Origin: Nanobdellati archaeon
GTDB taxonomy: Archaea > B1Sed10-29 > JAGVWA01
Assembly: GCA_018304505.1 (NCBI GenBank)
Contig: JAGVWA010000018.1
Location: forward strand, 1-53,203
DNA length: 53,203 nt
Reading direction: 5' to 3'
The first letter of the stretch is position 1. Each line of letters begins with the position of its first letter. The notes beneath the pieces were generated by a model, which ran no database searches, was not told the DNA's origin, and was given only the letters and a program-made list of their open reading frames with translations. Made by a program: the position numbers and the translations under genes. Below are positions 8,382 to 18,688 of this stretch, piece after piece.

Positions 8382-9161
8382 ATGGACTCGGGAAAAATTG
8401 ACATGTACAAGACAGCGCTTTACTTGCTGTTGGCAGTCATTGTGGCAATGCTCTCAGTGATCTTTGTGCCAATTGAACCAAGCTCGGTGATACAGAGCAA
8501 CAGAACTGATGTAAGTATACAAGGCGTTTCGTTCAACATCAGCGCAACTGGCACGGCTACTGTTTATCTCAACCCTGATGAAGTCACGGTAACGCTTGGC
8601 GTGGAAACCCTGGACATGAACGCGCAAGCGTCACAGCAGCAAAATACGCTGGCCATGAACGCTGTAATTGATTCACTCAGGGGGCTTGGCATTCATGACG
8701 ATGACATCAGGACCGTGACGTACAGCCTTACCGAGCAATACGACTACACCAGAGAAACTCGGGTATTTGCTGGTTACAGGACAGCGCACCACGTAACCGT
8801 GACAAGTAATGATGTAAAAAAAGCAGGGTTGATCATTGATTCTGCTTCAAAGGCTGGCGCCAACTACATTGGAGAGATAAACTTTGGCTTGCAAGACGAA
8901 ACCCGGCGTGCGGCATTACTGCAGGCTGTCACAGAGGCCACGCGAAACGCTTACGTAAAGGCCGAGGCCTCATCAAAGGTCTTCGGAGCAGACCAACTCA
9001 AGCCTGTAAACGTGCGCGCAGAACAGGACATCATTTATCCATTGTTCAGGGAATCGCTTGTAGTGGATGTGCAAGGCGCGTCTACTGAGGTAAGTCCAGG
9101 CCAAGTATCCGTGTCAGCAACCGTCACAGTGGACTTCCACGCAAGCGACCTTGGGATATAG
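8382..9161 (+). CDS. SIMPL (DUF541) domain membrane-anchored protein
   Basis: N-terminal TM; G.A.V...PD....LGV, GAN.I..I.F.L, PGQV.VSA.V.V.F patterns. Confidence 0.88.
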   Translation: MDSGKIDMYKTALYLLLAVIVAMLSVIFVPIEPSSVIQSNRTDVSIQGVSFNISATGTATVYLNPDEVTVTLGVETLDMNAQASQQQNTLAMNAVIDSLRGLGIHDDDIRTVTYSLTEQYDYTRETRVFAGYRTAHHVTVTSNDVKKAGLIIDSASKAGANYIGEINFGLQDETRRAALLQAVTEATRNAYVKAEASSKVFGADQLKPVNVRAEQDIIYPLFRESLVVDVQGASTEVSPGQVSVSATVTVDFHASDLGI

Positions 9162-9184
9162 CTTAAACTGTTGAATTGCAAATG

Positions 9185-9192
9185 TTTAAATA
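9185..9192 (+). promoter_or_regulatory. TATA box for Cys leader/tRNA-Cys/cysS unit
   Basis: TTTAAATA ending 24 nt before the ATG at 9216. Confidence 0.55.
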
Positions 9193-9215
9193 AAACGAGG
9201 GGTATAATGAGTTGC

Positions 9216-9260
9216 ATGATTAACCAACGCACATGTTGCTGTTGTACCCAAACGAGGTAA
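9216..9260 (+). CDS. Cys-rich leader peptide MINQRTCCCCTQTR (alternative start 9207, adding MSC)
   Basis: TGT TGC TGT TGT run directly upstream of tRNA-Cys and cysS; lies at the expected transcript start. Confidence 0.7.
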   Translation: MINQRTCCCCTQTR

Positions 9261-9322
9261 TGGTTAGTTCTAGCTCTGTTTCTCTGTTGAGATGAACGCG
9301 GGCTAGTGAAAACTTTGAAAAT

Positions 9323-9469
9323 GCAGGGATGGCAGAGTCTGCGTTGAACTCGTTCAACGAGCTTTCAGCGCGGCTGCAATGGCCATGCACCCGGCTGCAG
9401 TTCAGTTCTCTGTAAACTGGAGGACGGGACAGGAACCGGGAGACACGGATTCGATTTCCGTTCCCTGCT
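9323..9469 (+). tRNA. tRNA-Cys(GCA) with two introns (15/16: 9338-9379; 37/38: 9401-9434)
   Basis: Acceptor GCAGGGA/TCCCTGC plus U73; anticodon arm CCCGG-CTGCAG|A-CCGGG; T arm ACGGA-TTCGATT-TCCGT; BHB-like motif at the D-loop intron. Confidence 0.88.
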
Positions 9470-9491
9470 TTCATCTTATCGGGTAATTAAA

Positions 9492-10052
9492 ATGAATGGT
9501 TTAAATCAATATGACGGAAAAACCTTGCCTGGGTACACAACACCTGATGGCGAAGAGATAGTCATACGCGTAGTGACAAGGTCAGATGTAAGCAAGCTGT
9601 ATACGTTTTACAACAAAATGATAGGCACTGCCCCGTTTTCAAGGTATTTCAATCAATCGGATTCAGAAGAAAAAAAGAAAAAATGGATAAATGATTACAT
9701 TGAGTCAGACTACCAAACACTTGTGGTTGCAGAAGCCAAAAATGAAATCATTGGCTCAATAGGATTAGAGCTTACAGATGTGCCCGGCGCAAGCCATGTC
9801 GGTACATTACGGGGCATATCGGTAATTGAAGCTTGGAAGGGCAAGGATATATCGCGGCATATTGTTGCCGGCGTACTCAGTCTCGCGAAAATTGTTGGTC
9901 TTGAACTCATAATTTTGTCAATTAGGAGTGGGAACAACCTTGCTATAAGCCTATTTATCTCTGCAGGGTTTACAGAATATGGTAGTCTTCCCCAGGGGAG
10001 GAAAATTGATGGCAAGTACTATGATTCAATAATGCTCTTCAAAAAATTGTGA
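9492..10052 (+). CDS. GNAT family N-acetyltransferase
   Basis: LVVAE..EIIG, HVG..GISV, N..AI.LF...GF.EYG, DGKYYD.I.L motifs; stop overlaps cysS start (TGATG). Confidence 0.85.
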   Translation: MNGLNQYDGKTLPGYTTPDGEEIVIRVVTRSDVSKLYTFYNKMIGTAPFSRYFNQSDSEEKKKKWINDYIESDYQTLVVAEAKNEIIGSIGLELTDVPGASHVGTLRGISVIEAWKGKDISRHIVAGVLSLAKIVGLELIILSIRSGNNLAISLFISAGFTEYGSLPQGRKIDGKYYDSIMLFKKL

Positions 10053-11440
10053 TGCAAATGATCAAACTTTACAACACGCTTACACGACAAAAGGAAGAAT
10101 TCAAGACAATAAACGACAAGGAAGTCACTTTTTATAGCTGCGGGCCTACGGTTTACTGGTATGCGCACATCGGCAATCTAAGGGCGTACGTGTTTGCAGA
10201 CCTTCTAAAGAAAACCCTGGAATACAATGGCTACAAAGTAAGGCATGCCATGAACATAACCGATGTTGGTCACCTCACAAGCGACAGCGACACAGGCGAG
10301 GATAAGATGGAGAAAGCCAAAAAGCGCGAAGGGAAAAACGCATGGGAAATCGCCAAGTTCTATGAGGCCGCATTTTTCATGGACACTGATCGGCTCAACA
10401 TCGCGCGGCCAACAATAACGTGCAGGGCAACAGACCACATCAAGGAACAGATAAGCTTAGTAACGGCACTGGAAGAAAAAGGCTACACGTACCGTATTGA
10501 AGACGGAATCTATTTCGACACGTCCAAGTTATCTGATTACGGAAAGCTGGCAAGGCTCGACATTGAGGGCTTAAAGGCCGGCGCGCGCATCGAACTAGTT
10601 CCGGGTAAGAAGAACCCGACGGACTTCGCCCTATGGAAATTTTCCCCAAAAGACGCACAGCGCGACATGGAATGGGACAGCCCGTGGGGCATCGGGTTTC
10701 CAGGATGGCACATTGAATGCAGCGCGATGAGCATGCACCATCTCGGTAATCATTTTGACATACACACAGGCGGTGTTGATCACATTCCAGTACATCACAC
10801 AAACGAGATCGCGCAGTCAGAAAGCGCAACAGGGGAACAGTTCGTGAATTATTGGCTCCATAACGAGTTTGTTAATTTTAAGGACGTGAAGATGAGCAAG
10901 AGCAGCGGGGACATTTTGACATTGGACGTCCTAATAAACAGTGGCTACTCTCCAATGGATTACCGCTACCTGCTTTTGATGAGCCATTACAGAAGCCAAG
11001 TCACGTTTTCATTAGAAGCAATGGACAATGTAAAGAACACCCTCGAGCGGCTAAAGCGGCATGTTGTAGAACTCAGAAAGTCAGGCACAGGAAAAATTAA
11101 CGAAGCGTACGTGACAAAATTCGTTGAGAAAATGAATGACGATCTCAGCACGCCGGAAGCCCTTTCCGTGATGTGGGAGATGGTCCGCGATGATTCCATT
11201 TCAAGTAGCGATAAATACGCCACGCTCCTCGATTTCGACAAAATCCTATCATTGGGCATTGCGGAAATGCAGGAAGAGAAAGTAGAATTGACTCCCGACG
11301 AGCAGGCACTGGTGGAAAAACGCGATAAGGCACGCGCAGAGAAGGATTGGAAAACCAGCGACGAAATTCGGGATGAATTGAAGAAGCGCGGCCTGCAACT
11401 GCTTGACACGCCAGAGGGTACCAAGGTCGAGCAGGCGTAG
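10052..11440 (+). CDS. cysS: Cysteinyl-tRNA synthetase
   Basis: CGPTVY, HIGN, DFALWK, PGWHIECSAM, HH.NEIAQS, KMSKS. Confidence 0.98.
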   Translation: MQMIKLYNTLTRQKEEFKTINDKEVTFYSCGPTVYWYAHIGNLRAYVFADLLKKTLEYNGYKVRHAMNITDVGHLTSDSDTGEDKMEKAKKREGKNAWEIAKFYEAAFFMDTDRLNIARPTITCRATDHIKEQISLVTALEEKGYTYRIEDGIYFDTSKLSDYGKLARLDIEGLKAGARIELVPGKKNPTDFALWKFSPKDAQRDMEWDSPWGIGFPGWHIECSAMSMHHLGNHFDIHTGGVDHIPVHHTNEIAQSESATGEQFVNYWLHNEFVNFKDVKMSKSSGDILTLDVLINSGYSPMDYRYLLLMSHYRSQVTFSLEAMDNVKNTLERLKRHVVELRKSGTGKINEAYVTKFVEKMNDDLSTPEALSVMWEMVRDDSISSSDKYATLLDFDKILSLGIAEMQEEKVELTPDEQALVEKRDKARAEKDWKTSDEIRDELKKRGLQLLDTPEGTKVEQA

Positions 11441-11490
11441 TGTAAGATGTTGTGGCTTAGAAGCTTAGGACGGTTAGGTGAATAACTTCA

Positions 11491-14397
11491 TTAAACCTTC
11501 GCAGCTACAACAGTAATACTTGCTTCAGCGATCTTTGCCTTTGTCTCTTCGCCGGCTAGCGATTTTTTCTCAACAACATTTATTGAATCAGAGTTTGTGG
11601 TCTTCTGCACTTCATCCAACGCCACCGAGTTCTTGAAATCGCGAGGCGCGATCACTTCGACCTTGATGTGGTCAGGCTCTTGCAAGCCGAGTTGTTTCCT
11701 CAGTTGCTGCACTGTCCGAATTAAATCGCGCGTAGCACCTTCTTTCCTCAACTCGTCATTGAGTTGCTTGTTCAAGTAGACCGTTCCTGACCCGAATTGC
11801 GCTTCTGCATAGTCCCCCTTTGGCGCTTCTTTTGCATGTTTTATTTCGTGAACATTCAGTTGCTCTTTCATTATGTGCTCAACGCCAGCCAGAGGAACTG
11901 GCGAATCGCTAACTATAACAAGGTCTTGCAATGGCTGCCTGACTTTCATTCCAATCTCGTTCCGCAATGCTAGCGCTGATTCCATTATCTGTTTCATCCT
12001 TATGAATTGCTCTTCGAGTTTCTCGTCGTGCATTTCATCATTCGCTTCTGGGAATGTTTCCAAGTGCACTGACTCGTTGCCAGTCAGGTTTGTGTAGATT
12101 TCGTCAGACGCAAACGGCATTATTATTGATGAAATAATCGAAGTTTCCCTGAGGAGCTTGTTCAGCACATCAAATACGGCTTCATTGTTGCGGTTTTCCT
12201 TTACGCGCGAGCGTATGTATTTTACGTAGTCTCTTGACAAGTCATTCACGATGAACTCATGCAAGGCCCTTGCAGGTATAGACGTGTTAAGCTCTTTTTC
12301 GTAGCCCTGCACTGTATCGATTTTCAGCTTCTGGAGCCTTGAGAGTATCCACTTATCCTCGATTTCAAGCTTTTCTGGCAGTGGCTCTTTTGGCGTATAT
12401 CCATTCAGCAGCATGAATTTGACTGCGTAATTGTAGACGTTCCAGTAGGTGTTCATGGCGTTTTGTATTATCCTAATGTTGTCTTCGTCCCACTGCACGT
12501 TATCCCATGGCGTTGATGCCCACAGCAAGAACCACCTCACAATGTCAGGCCCGAATTTCTCAATAACGTCAAATGGCGCAACAACATTGCCCCTGCTCTT
12601 GCTCATTTTTTCGCCCTTCGCGTCCAGCACCAGGCCATTGACAAGGACCGAGTTAAACGGTGCCTCGTTGAAAACAATTGTGGATTCAACCAGCATAAGG
12701 TAGAACCAGCCCCTTGTTTGGTCTAGCCCTTCGGTTATAAAATCAACGGGAAACCATTTCTTGAATTCTTCATTTCTTGGATAACCAAATGGCGCCCAAG
12801 TGTCAGCACCAGCGTCGAACCAAACGTCGGTAACGTCCGTAGTGCGATGTGATTCCTTGCCACAGTTTTCACACTTTATGGTTACCTCATCAATATACGG
12901 CCTGTGCAGGTCCATACCCGCCTTGTAATTTGTGGCCTTTTCTCGTAGCTCTTTCACACTACCAATGACAGTGAGTTTGTCACAATCTGAGCATTCCCAT
13001 ACCGGAATCGGTATGCCCCAATACCTCTGCCTGGAGATGTTCCAGTCCCGGGCATTGGAAAGCCAATCATGGAATCGCTTCTGGCCGGCCCAGTCTGGTA
13101 CCCACCTTATTTTCGAGTTCAGGTCGAGCATTCGCTGCTTGATCGGCTCAATTTTGATGAACCACTGCGGCGTCGTTATGTAAATCAGTTTAGTTCTGCA
13201 CCGCCAACAGTGAGGATAGCTATGCGTAATTTTCTCGGTAAACAAGAGTGAGCCTTGATGGTCCAGCATTTCATTTATCTCGTTGTTGACCTTCAATACA
13301 TTTTTTCCCTTTAGTTCGGGGCCCGCTTCTTCATTATACTTTCCAGCCCGGTCAACGGGAGACAGTATTCTCAGATTGTATTTTAGTCCCGAGTTGTAAT
13401 CGTCTGGCCCATGCCCTGGGGCTGTGTGGACAACGCCTGTGCCGTCTCCAGTTGTGACATATTCTTCTGTAATTGTTTTGTGCACGAATTCCTTGTGCAC
13501 AGGCACCTGGTTTTCTAATGGATGTACATACGTCAGGTTCGTCAAGTCCGCTCCCTGCATCTCCTCAAGAACTTCGTAGACATCATGGCCGAGTTTTTTC
13601 ATCACGCTTTCAACTAAGTCCTTGGCGAGTATGTATACATCATCTTGGACTTTGACCCTGGCATAGGTAAAAGTTGGATGCACTGCCACGGCAACGTTGC
13701 TCGGTATTGTCCACGGGGTTGTTGTCCAAACCAAGAAGTACTCATTGTCCTTGTCGTTTATCTTGAACCTAAGGTATATCGAGGTATCGGTAACGTCCTC
13801 ATATCCCTGGCTGACTTCATGCTGCGCTAAACCGGTTTGGTGGTGCGGGCACCATGGCGTAGAGCCCTGGCCCTTGTACAATAAGTCTTGAGCATGCGCT
13901 TTTTCAAAAAAGAGCCACGTTGAGTCAATGTAATCATTTTCAAATGTTATGTATTTGTTGTCTAAGTTCCACAAGCTCGATGAGCCGAACTTTTCATAGA
14001 ATTCACCCCATAAATCCAGGTACTTTAGCGCGTGTTCCCGGCACGCCTTGTTGAACTTTTCAATGCCGAATTTCTCAATGTCAGAGCTGTCGAGTTTCAG
14101 TTCGTTTTGCACCATTGTCTCGACTGGCAGGCCGTGGGTGTCAAATCCAGGCTGGAGCCACACATTCTCCCCCTTAAGCAATCTGTATTTGCAGATGGTT
14201 TCGCGCAGGGTCCTGGTAAGGGCATGCCCCATGTGCGGCGGCGCGTTGGCATATGGCGGCCCATCGAGGTAGAAAAACTTTTTCCCCATTGCGTTTTTTT
14301 TCTTGCGCTTTTCAAGTAACTTGATGTCGCGCCATCGCTTGATGAACTTTTCCTGCAATTCAGTTGCGTTGTATTGTCCAACAGATTCCATTGTCAT
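11491..14397 (-). CDS. ileS: Isoleucyl-tRNA synthetase
   Basis: DGPPYAN, HMGH, WTTTPWT, DWNISRQRYWG, DQTRGWF, KMSKS. Confidence 0.97.
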   Translation of the reverse strand: MTMESVGQYNATELQEKFIKRWRDIKLLEKRKKKNAMGKKFFYLDGPPYANAPPHMGHALTRTLRETICKYRLLKGENVWLQPGFDTHGLPVETMVQNELKLDSSDIEKFGIEKFNKACREHALKYLDLWGEFYEKFGSSSLWNLDNKYITFENDYIDSTWLFFEKAHAQDLLYKGQGSTPWCPHHQTGLAQHEVSQGYEDVTDTSIYLRFKINDKDNEYFLVWTTTPWTIPSNVAVAVHPTFTYARVKVQDDVYILAKDLVESVMKKLGHDVYEVLEEMQGADLTNLTYVHPLENQVPVHKEFVHKTITEEYVTTGDGTGVVHTAPGHGPDDYNSGLKYNLRILSPVDRAGKYNEEAGPELKGKNVLKVNNEINEMLDHQGSLLFTEKITHSYPHCWRCRTKLIYITTPQWFIKIEPIKQRMLDLNSKIRWVPDWAGQKRFHDWLSNARDWNISRQRYWGIPIPVWECSDCDKLTVIGSVKELREKATNYKAGMDLHRPYIDEVTIKCENCGKESHRTTDVTDVWFDAGADTWAPFGYPRNEEFKKWFPVDFITEGLDQTRGWFYLMLVESTIVFNEAPFNSVLVNGLVLDAKGEKMSKSRGNVVAPFDVIEKFGPDIVRWFLLWASTPWDNVQWDEDNIRIIQNAMNTYWNVYNYAVKFMLLNGYTPKEPLPEKLEIEDKWILSRLQKLKIDTVQGYEKELNTSIPARALHEFIVNDLSRDYVKYIRSRVKENRNNEAVFDVLNKLLRETSIISSIIMPFASDEIYTNLTGNESVHLETFPEANDEMHDEKLEEQFIRMKQIMESALALRNEIGMKVRQPLQDLVIVSDSPVPLAGVEHIMKEQLNVHEIKHAKEAPKGDYAEAQFGSGTVYLNKQLNDELRKEGATRDLIRTVQQLRKQLGLQEPDHIKVEVIAPRDFKNSVALDEVQKTTNSDSINVVEKKSLAGEETKAKIAEASITVVAAKV

Positions 14398-14409
14398 CTT
14401 CCGATATCA

Positions 14410-16722
14410 TTATTTTATGTTGTGCATTATTACTAAGTCATCTTTGAACAGTTCTAACTCTTCAGGTATTTTAATGCCCGTGATTTCTGCTTTTAATGAA
14501 ATGCCTTTTTCTTTTTTTGTTTTCCAAATCATTGAGTTGAAGTCCATCAATGCTTGCGTTTTTTCGCTTAGAATTTGTGGCGTTTTCGCATCGTATTCTG
14601 GAAACGTCTCGTTGTGTATCAATCCGCTGTACAGCTCATTGTAAACCTTGTGCGTAACAAACGGTGTTATCGGCGCTAGTAGTTTAAGGACGCCCTGTAA
14701 AACGTAATGCAGCGTGTACAATGCCGAAGCGTCGTTGTCATAAGCCCTGTTCTTGACCATTTCAACATAGTGACTCGCAAACTGGTTCATGACAAACTCC
14801 CTGACGCGGTTTGCCGGAACGAAGAAATTATAATCTTGGTAGCCTTTTAGCGATTCCTTAACAAGGTTGTTGAACTCCTCCAGGATCCACTTGTCTGTGC
14901 CCGTTAGTTCTTTTGGTTTCTCAGCCTGGGCGAACATGGAAATCAGTTTTGAGAGGTTCCAGAGTTTTGTAATGAACTTTGCCGCTCCGTTAATGCGGTC
15001 TTCAGAAATCCTGAAGAACTCCCCAACATTGGATTCGCTGGCGGCCCATAATCGCCATGCATCGGCCCCGTATTTTTCTAGTATTGGGTTTATTTCCAGG
15101 TAGTTGCCTGCCGACTTCGACATTTTCTTTCCATCTTCTGCCAAGCCGAGGCCGTCGATCCACACCTTTTTGAAAGGCGCTTCATTCAATAGCTGCAAGT
15201 TGCGGAGGATCGTATAGTACAACCAGGTTCTGACGATTTCTGGACCCTGCGGTCGAATCGAAACAGGAAATGCTTTTTTGAACAACTCATCGTCGCGCGA
15301 AAACCCGGAGATGTAAAGGCTGGACAAGGATGAGTCAACCCACGTATCAAATACTTTATCTTCGCCAATAAACTCTGTGCAGCCGCATTCTGTGCATTTC
15401 GTAAACGGTGCCTTGTCCTTCCACGGCCTATAGTACGGGCCTGGCTCTGGCAGCATAGGGTGATGATTGTCCTTGCAGTACCACAACGGAATCTCAGTGT
15501 GATAGTACCTGCGTCGTGATATCGGCCAGTCGATTGTTATCGAGTTTATCCAGTCAGTAAGTATCTGCTTGTTTTTCGCTGGCAGGAACGTCATCGCGTC
15601 TGCCTTTTTCCTAACGTCATCTAGAAATTCGAGTTGTTTGATGTACCATTCCTTCATGCTGACGAATTCTAGAGGGTCTTTTGAGCGCTCGCACGTCGGA
15701 GTCCTGTGCGTCATGTCTTCTTGTTTCACGAGCAGGTCTTCATGCTTAAGCTTTTCAATAATTGTCTTGCGCGCCTCTTTCACAGTAAGACCTTTCAGAA
15801 ATCCAGTGGCTTGTGTCATTAGACCGTCTTCGCCAATGCCTTGCACTGGCTCCAAGCTCAATTCTCTGAAGATCTGCACATCGCTTGTGTCGCCGTAGCT
15901 GCATATCATTACGATTCCAGTGCCGAATTCAGGCTTGGCGTAAGTGTGTGCATAAATTGGAACTTCAGTTCCATACAATGGAACGATTGCATGTTTTCCG
16001 TGTAAGTATTTGTAGCGCTCGTCGTCTGGATGGACTAGGATTGCTTTACACGCCACCAATAGTTCTGGCCGTGTAGTACCAATTTCGATTTCGTCATTGG
16101 TTTCCGTTACCTTGAATTTTATAGTATTCATTTTGCTTGGCAATTCTTCGTAAACAATTTCGGCTTCCGCTATCGTTGTCCTGCAGCCGGGGCAGTAGAA
16201 GTTTGGCCGTAGGTGTTCGACAATTTGCCCCCTGTGCCACATTTCAATGAACATGGCTTGAGAGAAAGCCCTGTAGTCGTCACTGTCTGTGGCGTACGCG
16301 TTTTTGAAGTCAAAACTCATTCCGGAGCGCTTGAAAATATCAATGATACTTGTACCGATTTTGTTCATCTCGATAACGCATTCTTTGACGAAGAATTCCC
16401 TGTCCATGTCATGGATGCTCTTCTTGTGCTTTTTTTCAACTAAGAGTTCTAGGTTTATGCCGTTCCTGTCGAGGCCAATTGGAAAGAGAACATTGTAGCC
16501 TTGCATCCTTGCGGTGCGTCCGATCATGTCGATCTTGCAGTAGTGCGCCAGCTGTCCAGGATGGGGATCTCCAGAAGGATACGGCGGGGGATTGTCTATT
16601 GAAAACGTTTCCTTGTCCGAGTTCCTGTCGAACGAGAAATCGTAGTCAATATCGAATTCTGTTATGAGTTCTTTTTCGTTTTCGCTCGTGAATCTCTTTT
16701 CAGTCAGTTTCGCTTCAGCCAA
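14410..16722 (-). CDS. valS: Valyl-tRNA synthetase (TTG start)
   Basis: DNPPPY, TTRPEL, FGTG.VM.CSYGD, DWPISRR, IVRTW, KMSKS; GGTGA SD. Confidence 0.95.
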   Translation of the reverse strand: MAEAKLTEKRFTSENEKELITEFDIDYDFSFDRNSDKETFSIDNPPPYPSGDPHPGQLAHYCKIDMIGRTARMQGYNVLFPIGLDRNGINLELLVEKKHKKSIHDMDREFFVKECVIEMNKIGTSIIDIFKRSGMSFDFKNAYATDSDDYRAFSQAMFIEMWHRGQIVEHLRPNFYCPGCRTTIAEAEIVYEELPSKMNTIKFKVTETNDEIEIGTTRPELLVACKAILVHPDDERYKYLHGKHAIVPLYGTEVPIYAHTYAKPEFGTGIVMICSYGDTSDVQIFRELSLEPVQGIGEDGLMTQATGFLKGLTVKEARKTIIEKLKHEDLLVKQEDMTHRTPTCERSKDPLEFVSMKEWYIKQLEFLDDVRKKADAMTFLPAKNKQILTDWINSITIDWPISRRRYYHTEIPLWYCKDNHHPMLPEPGPYYRPWKDKAPFTKCTECGCTEFIGEDKVFDTWVDSSLSSLYISGFSRDDELFKKAFPVSIRPQGPEIVRTWLYYTILRNLQLLNEAPFKKVWIDGLGLAEDGKKMSKSAGNYLEINPILEKYGADAWRLWAASESNVGEFFRISEDRINGAAKFITKLWNLSKLISMFAQAEKPKELTGTDKWILEEFNNLVKESLKGYQDYNFFVPANRVREFVMNQFASHYVEMVKNRAYDNDASALYTLHYVLQGVLKLLAPITPFVTHKVYNELYSGLIHNETFPEYDAKTPQILSEKTQALMDFNSMIWKTKKEKGISLKAEITGIKIPEELELFKDDLVIMHNIK

Positions 16723-16727
16723 TCAAT

Positions 16728-16794
16728 TCACCATAACTCGTTTTAATAGCAACTCCAAAATGTTTGTTAGAGTAGCTATTTAGAAATAACTACT
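16728..16794 (-). promoter_or_regulatory. Putative attenuator with mutually exclusive hairpins upstream of valS
   Basis: 1:2 AGTAGTTATT/AATAGCTACT; 2:3 AATAGCTACTCTAA/TTGGAGTTGCTATT; weak 3:4 pairing over SD GGTGA. Confidence 0.6.
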
Positions 16795-16856
16795 ACGGGT
16801 TGAGGTAAAGAAATTATTTCTATTATAACTTTTGTAAGGTAGTACATGAGTCTCAT
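16776..16856 (-). CDS. Val/Ile-rich leader peptide MRLMYYLTKVIIEIISLPQPVVVISK
   Basis: 4 Val and 5 Ile within 15 codons; ends 53 nt before valS-ileS; TATA at 16886-16894. Confidence 0.7.
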   Translation of the reverse strand: MRLMYYLTKVIIEIISLPQPVVVISK

Positions 16857-17107
16857 TTTGCCCAGATAAATTAGCAGGGATTTGGTATATATTAATTGTT
16901 GCTCTCTTCCTGCATACTCACGGGTTTTGTTTCAAAAATGTCTTAGTTTGCTTTAGGAATTCCTTTAGCGTGAATTCTGTTAGTTTCGATCAAGGATTCG
17001 AAGTAAGGCTCTCTCTAGTGATATGTTAAGCAGCGGAAATTCATTATAGTCAAAACGTTAATCGAATCCATCAGCTAGGCATAAATTTAAGATGGTTTTT
17101 AAAACTA

Positions 17108-17168
17108 TGCTTTAGTAATGCACAAAAGCTTGCATTAGTAATGCACAAAAGCTTGCATTAGTAATGCA
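17108..17168. repeat. 23-bp tandem repeat (about 2.6 copies) containing palindrome TGCATTAGTAATGCA
   Basis: Read directly: TGCWTTAGTAATGCACAAAAGCT x2 plus a partial copy. Confidence 0.9.
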
Positions 17169-17206
17169 TGAAAATATGTATTGCCCCTGCACAATTTAAA
17201 ATAAGG

Positions 17207-18688
17207 TTAGTATGCCTTGGCAACGTACATGACGTGCTTGGCTTCTTTGCCACAACCAATACATTTCGCGCCATTGGCAACTCTTTCTTCTTTGCCAAAC
17301 TCGATAAACTTAGTGCCTCGAACTTCGGCATGGTATGCTTCGCCGATCTTGTCCGCGCATTTCAATCCATCCTTCTCGCGCGAGCAGAAATTCACCTTGA
17401 CGAAACCGCCTTTCTCTAGCTGCTTTCCGAGCTCTTCAAAATCCGTGGCCTCGTGAGTGTTTCCTTCAAACCATTTCATGGTTTGATCCTTTAGTGTTTT
17501 CAGAATCTCAGGAACTGCTTTTTCAATGTACGTTTCCAAGTCTTTTTGCTTGATTGTTTCCTTTTTTCCATTGTCCCTGCGCGCAATCGTTAATTCATGC
17601 TTTTCAAGTTCCTTGCTGCCGATTTCAATCCTCAGTGGAGTGCCCCGCGCTTCCCAGTAGTAGTACTTAGAACCTGGGCGCTTGTCACTGTCGTCGACCT
17701 CTGTTCGGTAATCAAGTTCCCTGAGTTGCGTTTGCAAGTCATAACACTCCTGAAGTAGGGTGGTGCTATCTGCGTCGGCCTTTAAAATTGGAACGATAAC
17801 GACTTGTGTAGGCGCAAGTCCAAATGGCAGCCTTAGGCCCTTGTTGTCTCCATGCACTGAAATCAGGGCTGCATAGATTCTGGAAATGGCTGGCCCGAAC
17901 GTGGTCTGGAACGCATATTTCTCCTTCTCGTTCTCATCAAGAAATTTTATGTTGTATGACTTCGCGAAGTTCTGCCCGTAGAAATGTGTGCTCGGTAACT
18001 GTAAAACTTTCTTGTCTGGCATCAACGCGTCAGCAGCGAAACTGTGTTGCCCGCCTGCGAACTTATCCCAGTCAGGCCGGTGAAAGAAAATAATCGGCAA
18101 CCCCCATTTATCACGCAATACATCGTAAGTCATTTCCATGTCTTCCTTAACCTGGTTCCAGGCTTCTTCTGCGGTGGCGAAAACGTCATGCGCTTCTATC
18201 CAGTGAAATTCCCTGTCACGTAAGAAAGGTCGCGTGTGCTTTGTTTCATACCTCCAAACTTGGCAAGACTGATAAATCTTCAACGGCAGGTCCCTGTGGC
18301 TGCGTATCCATTGCGAGTACGTGTCGTACATCGCGGTTTCAGATGTTGGCCGCATTGCCAGCTTTTCTTCAAACTCGTCATCCGTGCCACCTTTTGTCAC
18401 CCAAAACACGTTTGGGGCAAAGTTCTCGATGTGCTCTGCTTCCTTGGCAAAGTAGTGCTCTGGAATCAATGAAGGAAAACGCGCTGGCTTGTGGCCATGA
18501 GTTTCCAGCGAGGATTCCATGTCTGCATACATTCGCTTTTCTGTAATTGCGGCATTTGGCATGTGGACTATGAAGCCCTTCAAGCGGTACCTTTGGTCTG
18601 CCAGCTCGGCGTAACTGACGATTTCAGTAAACCATTCTGAGAAATTCTTTTCCTTATCGATGTTAAATCCCTTGTCTTCCTCTGCCAT
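17207..18688 (-). CDS. proS: Prolyl-tRNA synthetase (archaeal/eukaryotic type)
   Basis: RPTSET, RYETKHTRPFLRDREFHW.EAH, C-terminal Zn site and AKAY end. Confidence 0.97.
   Translation of the reverse strand: MAEEDKGFNIDKEKNFSEWFTEIVSYAELADQRYRLKGFIVHMPNAAITEKRMYADMESSLETHGHKPARFPSLIPEHYFAKEAEHIENFAPNVFWVTKGGTDDEFEEKLAMRPTSETAMYDTYSQWIRSHRDLPLKIYQSCQVWRYETKHTRPFLRDREFHWIEAHDVFATAEEAWNQVKEDMEMTYDVLRDKWGLPIIFFHRPDWDKFAGGQHSFAADALMPDKKVLQLPSTHFYGQNFAKSYNIKFLDENEKEKYAFQTTFGPAISRIYAALISVHGDNKGLRLPFGLAPTQVVIVPILKADADSTTLLQECYDLQTQLRELDYRTEVDDSDKRPGSKYYYWEARGTPLRIEIGSKELEKHELTIARRDNGKKETIKQKDLETYIEKAVPEILKTLKDQTMKWFEGNTHEATDFEELGKQLEKGGFVKVNFCSREKDGLKCADKIGEAYHAEVRGTKFIEFGKEERVANGAKCIGCGKEAKHVMYVAKAY

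Follow-up and report, generated by a model that had tools for sequence, protein, structure and literature searches.

Tiny open reading frames rich in cysteine or isoleucine/valine codons precede the matching tRNA-charging genes in a small archaeon and its relatives and resemble bacterial amino-acid-sensing leader peptides

In a 53,203-nucleotide stretch of a Nanobdellati archaeon genome (contig JAGVWA010000018.1, assembly GCA_018304505.1; referred to here as the window), two transcription units for aminoacyl-tRNA synthetases are each preceded by a tiny ORF whose codon run matches the downstream genes. The first, M(SCM)INQRTCCCCTQTR (9207/9216-9260, +), lies behind a TATA-like box and ahead of an intron-split tRNA-Cys, a GNAT gene and cysS, while the second, MRLMYYLTKVIIEIISLPQPVVVISK (16856-16776, -), lies behind a TATA-like box and ahead of valS-ileS. 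The initial annotation had described both ORFs, their TATA boxes and overlapping alternative hairpins, and this observation is confirmed, although mutually exclusive hairpins were confirmed for the Val/Ile leader only. Its interpretation, that these are ribosome-mediated attenuators forming a lineage-level regulatory strategy with little precedent in archaea, is supported in part: the cognate matches are a lineage-level feature, but attenuation of transcription was not demonstrated. No archaeal precedent was found in the literature searched. The features of the two units are as follows.

9185-9192 (+), TATA-like box TTTAAATA, its centre about 27 nt upstream of the ATG at 9216
9207-9260 (+), Cys leader ORF MSCMINQRTCCCCTQTR, ending in TAA; the conserved, probably leaderless start is the second ATG at 9216 (MINQRTCCCCTQTR)
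9234-9245 (+), run of four Cys codons, TGT TGC TGT TGT
9270-9306 (+), predicted hairpin between the leader ORF and tRNA-Cys, its 5' side carrying a recurrent TAGTTCTAG-like box
9323-9469 (+), tRNA-Cys(GCA) gene with two insertions (about 9339-9378 and 9401-9434)
9492-10052 (+), GNAT-family acetyltransferase gene, overlapping the cysS start and so probably co-transcribed with it
10049-11440 (+), cysS, cysteine--tRNA ligase (TIGR00435, 467.6 bits; cut-off 340)
16886-16895 (-), TATA-like box TTAATATATA (position approximate), its centre about 34 nt upstream of the leader ATG, implying a 5' UTR of roughly 8 nt
16776-16856 (-), Ile/Val leader ORF MRLMYYLTKVIIEIISLPQPVVVISK, from ATG to TAG, with 9 of 26 residues I or V
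16771-16794 (-), predicted hairpin 1:2, in which the Val-Val-Val-Ile codons pair with the stop-codon region
16745-16780 (-), predicted hairpin 2:3
14410-16722 (-), valS, TTG start with GGTGA 5 nt upstream (NF009687, 873.5 bits)
11491-14397 (-), ileS, 12 nt downstream of valS (TIGR00392, 883 bits)
17207-18688 (-), proS

Gene identities were assigned with NCBIfam profiles. The TATA-like boxes were read by eye and without statistics; a spacing of 26-29 nt between box centre and ATG is also seen at the tRNA-Cys loci of genomes G029, G039 and G048, is unclear in G049 and was not measured in the other three. The same layout, a short ORF upstream of the controlled genes behind a TATA-like box, occurs in relatives. 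The tRNA-Cys is missed by both ARAGORN and Rfam, but alignment with intron-less tRNA-Cys genes of relatives places it at 9323-9469, with one insertion in the D-loop, a second after position 37, the anticodon GCA and a U discriminator.

The hairpins were examined by folding against shuffled sequences. In the valS leader, 16794-16785 pairs with 16780-16771 at -8.7 kcal/mol (z -5.1, 0 of 300 shuffles as low), and 16780-16767 pairs with 16758-16745 at -13.5 kcal/mol (z -4.8). The two share the strand 16780-16771 and so exclude each other. In the Cys leader, the hairpin at 9270-9306 is better than shuffles (region 9262-9322, -17.5 kcal/mol, z -2.97), whereas the fold of the whole leader is not (z -1.7). 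A further hairpin of the Cys leader, H1, is not better than shuffles in the window, though it is in G039, G047, G048 and G052, which leaves the presence of alternative hairpins in this leader undecided. Neither leader of the window holds a hairpin followed by a T run, the bacterial factor-independent terminator; archaeal termination signals differ from bacterial ones, so its absence does not exclude attenuation.

Within this genome, CCCC is the only run of three or more Cys among 1594 short ORFs in 619 upstream regions, while an I+V score of 5 in a 6-residue window occurs in 2 of 244 background upstream regions. Ile runs do occur in background short ORFs of this genome, and short TGY repeats gave many chance hits in two large collection scans, as could be expected if AT-rich intergenic DNA yields Ile/Val-rich ORFs and TGY repeats arise by slippage. 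However, chance as an explanation is contradicted by the recurrence, frame specificity and cognate matching described below, and is considered very unlikely.

The initial annotation had named the loss of cognate runs or of intact frames in orthologous leaders as grounds for rejecting its proposal, and leaders were sought in relatives. For the Cys leader, the order TATA box, ORF ending in a Cys run, spacer and tRNA-Cys(GCA) occurs in G000 and G029 of the window's phylum, which is 2 of 16 genomes in which a tRNA-Cys was located. In a second archaeal phylum it occurs in G039, G047, G048, G049, G052 and G053, or 6 of 9 tRNA-Cys loci, with the tRNA confirmed by ARAGORN and Rfam in three of them. 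The peptides are MKSRTFCCCC, MNQIRLCCCCC, MKLNLCCCC, MKRNLCGCCCSQ, MDQKKKKSKCGCCS, MKSKTFDCCCCCQ and MMNTDKICCCCCC. A strict form of the Cys pattern gave 0 hits, and 0 control hits, in 371 genomes of a third phylum, which also argues against chance. The leaders are patchy, as there is no Cys run before tRNA-Cys in the closest relatives G011, G013 and G001 and none in family f30.

Ile/Val-rich ORFs followed by a hairpin precede valS-ileS in 11 of 17 genomes of the window's order, across families f1-f6. An I+V score of 4 or more was found in 8 of 16 loci, against 13 of 244 background regions (binomial 6e-7). Among 14 outgroup genomes, none has such an ORF at the right place, and the four genomes of the order in which proS abuts valS have no leader. 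The reading frame is conserved, with in-frame indels of 18, 27 and 39 nt lying between conserved ORF ends. I+V counts are 59 of 193 in frame against 5 and 10 in the other two frames, and 44 of 88 against 2 and 5 in the last 8 codons; the maximum in 2000 shuffles was 37. Some of the 11 ORFs were chosen partly by their I/V content, which inflates this frame test, but neither the background comparison above nor the uniform scan below has this bias. Both kinds of leader show little sequence conservation except for the cognate run.

All 11 valS leaders have a hairpin at the stop codon (z -1.05 to -4.6), with 9 of 11 matched by at most 3.5% of shuffles. Structural covariation, which had been put forward in advance as a check, was seen in family f4, where 6 of 10 pairs show compensatory changes. 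In this family the hairpin is followed by A-rich, not T-rich, sequence. The first 8 codons of the f4 leaders are conserved at every codon position and the few changes are non-synonymous, which points to an RNA-level constraint as well as, or instead of, a coding one. A test against shuffles for sequestration of the valS ribosome-binding site was negative (0 of 11 leaders).

In the second phylum the run tracks the downstream enzyme. There valS is not followed by ileS and carries Val runs (MSNSSVVVV, MKTNVMVVV, MITNTVVNV, MTSNIVVVI), while ileS carries Ile runs in 9 of 15 loci, for example MNTDTSIIIIIR, and is followed by an intron-bearing tRNA whose anticodon was read as UAU. A uniform scan for loci with 4 or more of a residue in a 6-residue window gave, for ileS, I 8, V 0 and C 0 of 15; for valS, I 1, V 2 and C 0 of 17; and for tRNA-Cys, I 0, V 0 and C 5 of 9. 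This is 15 of 41 cognate hits against 1 of 82 non-cognate hits. Fisher tests gave p of about 1e-7 and 2e-8, values which overstate the case as relatives are not independent. In some ileS leaders of this phylum, a TATA-like box, read by eye, lies between the leader and ileS, and the gene may therefore have its own promoter. In G051-G053 the Val ORF lies inside a long-range helix that is followed by T4-T7 tracts, which is terminator-like.

The scan of other synthetase genes, also proposed beforehand as a check, showed the feature to be narrower than implied by the initial annotation. Of the other synthetase genes of the window's genome, 10 upstream regions were read and none has a cognate leader; a metG-like gene was absent from the ORF list used. 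In the second phylum leuS has none (0 of 5).

The best explanation, given a probability of roughly 0.6, is that the two ORFs are cis-acting leaders that report the supply of charged tRNA to the genes that make it. In this view each lies at the 5' end of its transcription unit, probably leaderless for the Cys ORF and behind a 5' UTR of about 8 nt for the Ile/Val ORF, and a ribosome translating it must read a run of codons for the very amino acid handled by the downstream genes. When the cognate aminoacyl-tRNA is scarce, the ribosome would pause on the run, which lies within a ribosome footprint of a hairpin starting at or next to the leader's stop codon. In the valS leader of the window, the paused ribosome would cover strand 1 (the Val-Val-Val-Ile codons) and so force pairing 2:3 instead of 1:2, a switch proposed to raise expression of the downstream genes. 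The analysis itself establishes the ORFs with their runs and position, their conservation and conserved frame, the match between run and downstream gene, and the hairpins. Translation of the ORFs, their co-transcription with the synthetase genes, an effect of pausing on expression and its direction, and the nature of the output (transcription read-through, translation, or RNA processing or stability) are inferences. The kept frame and frame-specific I/V content are only indirect evidence of translation and do not settle it; no RNA or ribosome data were available, and the response of expression to limiting charged tRNA was not measured.

Two other explanations were considered. The conserved element could be RNA or DNA in the 5' region, for instance an operator bound by the synthetase or another protein, as with the E. 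coli thrS operator, or a processing or stability signal, with the ORFs as by-products not used for sensing. The strong conserved hairpins at the stop codon and the nucleotide-level conservation of the first codons in family f4 are in favor of this, as are an invariant GUGCYCC...GGGGCAC element in 9 ileS leaders with no covariation and a TAGTTCTAG-like box which recurs after the stop codon in Cys and Ile leaders and also before ileS in G020 and G022, which have no leader ORF. However, this reading is unlikely, as it does not explain why the run matches the downstream gene in three separate cases, why I/V is confined to one frame, why indels keep the frame, or why leaders of different families share nothing but the run. 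Alternatively, the ORFs may encode small peptides acting in trans, such as hydrophobic or Cys-rich micro-proteins that bind the synthetase, a metal or a membrane. Frame conservation is compatible with this, and a trans role has been reported for the bacterial leader peptide peTrpL. This appears still less likely, as the peptides are 9-28 residues long and conserved only in the run, with lengths and remaining residues varying freely between families, and the run tracks the neighboring gene, which is expected of a sensor rather than of a folded product.

Among bacterial systems, the E. coli pheM leader of pheST and the ilvL/ivbL and trpL attenuators have leader ORFs whose end overlaps alternative hairpins, as is seen in the valS leader of the window; in the pheM case the controlled genes encode an aminoacyl-tRNA synthetase, and the ilv-type leaders mix Ile and Val, as does that of the window. 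The archaeal units differ in their TATA-box promoters, in the lack of a hairpin-plus-U-run terminator in the window and in that one unit begins with a tRNA gene, and their output step is unknown. Leaderless polycysteine short ORFs of mycobacteria, the "Cys ribulon" (bioRxiv 10.1101/834739), likewise have a Cys run near the 3' end of a first cistron and are proposed, and were tested there, to sense Cys-tRNA through ribosome pausing. Here, however, the next gene is tRNA-Cys, not an ORF, followed by cysS, no ribosome-binding-site pairing applies, and the sequences are unrelated and from another domain of life. T-box riboswitches also give amino-acid-specific control of synthetase genes through the charging state of the cognate tRNA, but these bind the tRNA directly and need no ORF. 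There was no match to the T-box covariance model in an Rfam search of positions 8800-17600 at E up to 1, and no Rfam family other than tRNA matched these positions or 12 leader loci. In ermC/cat-type translational attenuation (also named in 10.1101/834739), a ribosome stalled in a leader ORF remodels a downstream hairpin, but those systems sense a drug through the nascent peptide and free a ribosome-binding site, whereas the occlusion test here was negative.

A more far-reaching possibility, considered about as likely as not, is that small-genome archaea of at least two phyla run a regulon directed by ribosomes, in which leader ORFs with Cys, Ile or Val runs would sense charged-tRNA supply and control modules made of a synthetase gene and, in some cases, the tRNA that reads the leader's own codons (tRNA-Cys with cysS; ileS with tRNA-Ile(UAU)). 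The output could be an archaeal step with no bacterial counterpart, such as a paused ribosome deciding whether RNA polymerase stops at oligo-T tracts or whether the tRNA is correctly excised from its precursor. This would be the first case of translation-coupled attenuation in Archaea.

These ORFs of 9-28 codons, and the intron-split tRNA next to one of them, are invisible to standard gene and tRNA finders, which is a practical lesson for annotation. Leader-peptide attenuation is a bacterial mechanism that depends on ribosomes following RNA polymerase closely. A conserved family of archaeal leaders specific for Cys, Ile and Val would show that archaea use ribosome pausing as a metabolic sensor, would give a natural handle on transcription-translation coupling and on termination in archaea, and would explain how very small genomes with few regulators tune tRNA charging.

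The window derives from a small archaeal genome of 917 kb in 21 contigs (G000), estimated to be 92.8% complete, which has a thermosome gene, many intron-bearing tRNA genes and TATA-type upstream boxes. Positions 9185-18688 hold a cluster of synthetase genes, with cysS on the plus strand converging on ileS-valS on the minus strand and proS lying further upstream of valS. The two tiny ORFs to which the initial annotation drew attention, one with Cys codons before tRNA-Cys/cysS and one with Ile and Val codons before valS-ileS, are present as described. The features of this region are as follows.

9207-9260, plus strand: short ORF from ATG 9207 to TAA 9260, reading MSCMINQRTCCCCTQTR
9264-9272: TAGTTCTAG-like box (TAGTTYYAG) just after the stop codon of the Cys ORF
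9323-9469: tRNA-Cys(GCA) gene interrupted by two insertions, one in the D-loop region and one after position 37
9492-10052: GNAT acetyltransferase gene wedged between tRNA-Cys and cysS and overlapping the cysS start
16856-16776, minus strand: short ORF from ATG 16856 to TAG 16776, reading MRLMYYLTKVIIEIISLPQPVVVISK
about 17110-17185, minus strand: two and a half tandem copies of a unit of about 23 nt (tgcattactaatgcaagcttttg), read by eye, in the 485-nt gap between proS and valS, upstream of the valS leader promoter

The tRNA gene at 9323-9469 is not found by ARAGORN, with or without its intron option, nor by the Rfam tRNA model, and a scan of single in silico deletions mostly gave a spurious tRNA-Gln(CUG) (140 of 187 calls). 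This identity was rejected in favor of tRNA-Cys(GCA) following alignment with intron-less tRNA-Cys genes of relatives. ARAGORN also found no Cys, Gln, Glu, Val or Thr tRNA in the genome, so other split tRNA genes are probably hidden as well.

The cysS and tRNA-Cys loci of relatives were searched, and the same architecture was found repeatedly, namely a TATA box, a short ORF ending in a Cys run, a spacer and then tRNA-Cys. It occurs in G029, a genome from another family of the same phylum, as MKSRTFCCCC, with cysS lying 13 nt after the tRNA and abutting it directly. In a different phylum it occurs in genomes G039, G047, G048, G049, G052, and G053, corresponding to 6 of 9 tRNA-Cys loci there. 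In the window's own phylum the Cys leader is rare, being present in 2 of the 16 genomes in which tRNA-Cys was located, with the nearest relatives having at most one or two scattered Cys codons. The strict pattern gave no match, and no control match, in 371 genomes of a third phylum. Two larger scans do not measure the distribution of the element: in a collection of genome contigs there were at least 120 matching stretches, of which 80 were examined and none was true, while in a collection of metagenome contigs 25 stretches included one true case, which carries the same sequence as G039.

The eight Cys leaders align, sharing the start ATGA(A/T), the run, the stop codon, a post-stop box (CATAGG in the second phylum) and a TAGTTCT-like box. 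In four of the five leaders measured, by eye, the TATA center lies 26-29 nt before the ATG. The ORF is therefore probably leaderless, and in the window the conserved start is the second ATG at 9216. A hairpin pairing the codons just before the run with the post-stop box, and so enclosing the Cys codons, is better than shuffled sequences in G039, G047, G048, and G052 but not in the window. Most spacers carry T4-T6 tracts, whereas that of the window has only T3. Pairing of the post-stop CAUAGG box with the D-arm of tRNA-Cys was also considered, by eye only, and was discarded as it was inconsistent between genomes.

In the window's order, 11 of 17 valS loci have a short ORF rich in Ile and Val, which starts 84-151 nt before valS and ends 51-76 nt before it, behind a TATA-like box. 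The peptides of different families share only the I/V cluster near the C-terminus. Three tests argue against composition or chance as the source of these ORFs. An I+V window score of 4 or more is reached at 8 of 16 loci, against 13 of 244 background upstream regions of the window's genome, and none of 14 outgroup genomes reaches it at the right place. The I+V counts are 59 of 193 in the ORF frame against 5 and 10 in the other two frames, although it should be mentioned that some of these ORFs had been chosen by their I/V content, which inflates this test. In family f4 of the order, conserved ORF ends are separated by in-frame insertions of 18, 27, and 39 nt. The synteny also fits, as the order keeps proS-valS-ileS together and the four genomes in which proS abuts valS have no leader.

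Every one of the 11 Ile/Val leaders has a hairpin at or just after the stop codon. Covariation had been proposed in advance as a means of checking such structures, and in family f4 the hairpin has compensatory changes in 6 of 10 pairs. In the window, the Val-Val-Val-Ile codons pair with the stop-codon region, which can alternatively pair with a third segment further downstream, and both hairpins are far better than shuffled sequences. The valS leaders of family f4 (loci L075, L076, L078, L083, and L073) have a further feature in that their first eight codons, ATGCCGTCGATAACAACCAAGACA (MPSITTKT), are conserved at all codon positions while the flanks diverge, and the same block read on the opposite strand encodes VLVVID, which suggests an RNA- or DNA-level constraint.

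The strongest evidence came from the second phylum, in which valS and ileS are separate. There, valS is preceded by Val-run ORFs in G048, G051, G052, and G053 (G051 being a further genome of this phylum), while ileS is preceded by Ile-run ORFs in 9 of 15 loci. In at least four genomes ileS is directly followed by an intron-bearing tRNA, located at L275:1160-1262(-), L276:1322-1439(-), L281:1115-1230(-), and L280:4198-4313(+) of the respective loci, whose anticodon was read from the alignment as UAU (tRNA-Ile for AUA) and which ARAGORN does not call correctly. The Ile leaders upstream use mostly AUA codons. The same blind scan was then applied to all loci, with the following result. As relatives are not independent, p-values for such comparisons overstate the case. 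Where valS and ileS form one operon, as in the window's order, the leaders mix Ile (38 residues) and Val (21 residues).

Table. Loci of the second phylum with 4 or more of a given residue in a six-residue window.
Upstream of ileS: 15 loci; I 8, V 0, C 0
Upstream of valS: 17 loci; I 1, V 2, C 0
Upstream of tRNA-Cys: 9 loci; I 0, V 0, C 5

The leaders recur among relatives but were not found before the other synthetase genes that were checked. The upstream regions of synthetase genes had been named as the place to look for further cognate-rich ORFs, and 10 such regions of other synthetase genes of G000 were read (leuS-, hisS-, thrS-, glyS/serS-, aspS/asnS-, and trpS/tyrS-like), none of which has one; the metG-like gene was absent from the list of ORFs used. 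At G000:C3:82915-84316, on contig C3, a tRNA-His gene lies directly upstream of a 456-codon ORF which weakly matched a class II synthetase family; this may be another tRNA-plus-synthetase pair, but no His-rich ORF precedes it. On the same contig, a GTG-started short ORF with a run of four His, VQSTLHHHHY, lies about 150 nt before a 262-codon gene (upstream of G000:C3:21915-22703) which was not annotated. In the second phylum, Leu leaders were found before leuS in 0 of 5 loci, the threshold of 1e-100 having left 12 of the 17 genomes without a locus. In other orders of the window's phylum, leaders were present at 0 of 5 ileS loci and were absent before valS of G029.

The pattern is the logic of bacterial leader-peptide control, whereby a ribosome pausing on cognate codons, within reach of a hairpin, reports the supply of charged tRNA to the genes that supply it. 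What the analysis shows is comparative throughout, no expression data having been examined, and the mode of action is inferred from it. The output step is not settled. The Val leaders of G051-G053 favor transcription attenuation, as there the whole ORF lies inside a long-range helix followed by T4-T7 tracts, and the T-rich spacers of the Cys leaders point the same way. However, RNAalifold on a MAFFT alignment of four valS leaders of the second phylum did not recover this helix, which rests on single-sequence folds and on one compensatory change read by eye. Against a bacterial-type terminator, a scan found none in the leaders of the window, and in family f4 the hairpin is followed by A-rich sequence. 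Occlusion of the valS ribosome-binding site is likewise not supported.

Conservation at the RNA level suggests further players, examples being the f4 block, an invariant GUGCYCC...GGGGCAC element and the TAGTTCTAG-like box. Helix B of the ileS leaders is invariant and so gives no covariation evidence. The TAGTTCTAG-like box (window 9264-9272 and loci L013, L024, L239, L240, L276, L278, L301, and L302) recurs just after the stop codon of the Cys and Ile leaders, and also lies 25-30 nt before ileS in G020 and G022, two genomes which have no leader ORF. Its function is not known; in several leaders it supplies extra in-frame stop codons, and in G000 as a whole the 7- to 9-mers occur at the expected frequency.

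The closest systems described to date are the pheM-pheST and ilv/trp leader attenuators of enterobacteria and the leaderless polycysteine ORFs of mycobacteria, which act on translation (10.1101/834739). No archaeal leader-peptide attenuator was found by full-text literature searches, which did not extend to most subscription journals. The sensing logic of the leaders is familiar from bacteria, while the domain of life in which they occur, their tRNA-containing targets and their RNA architecture are new.
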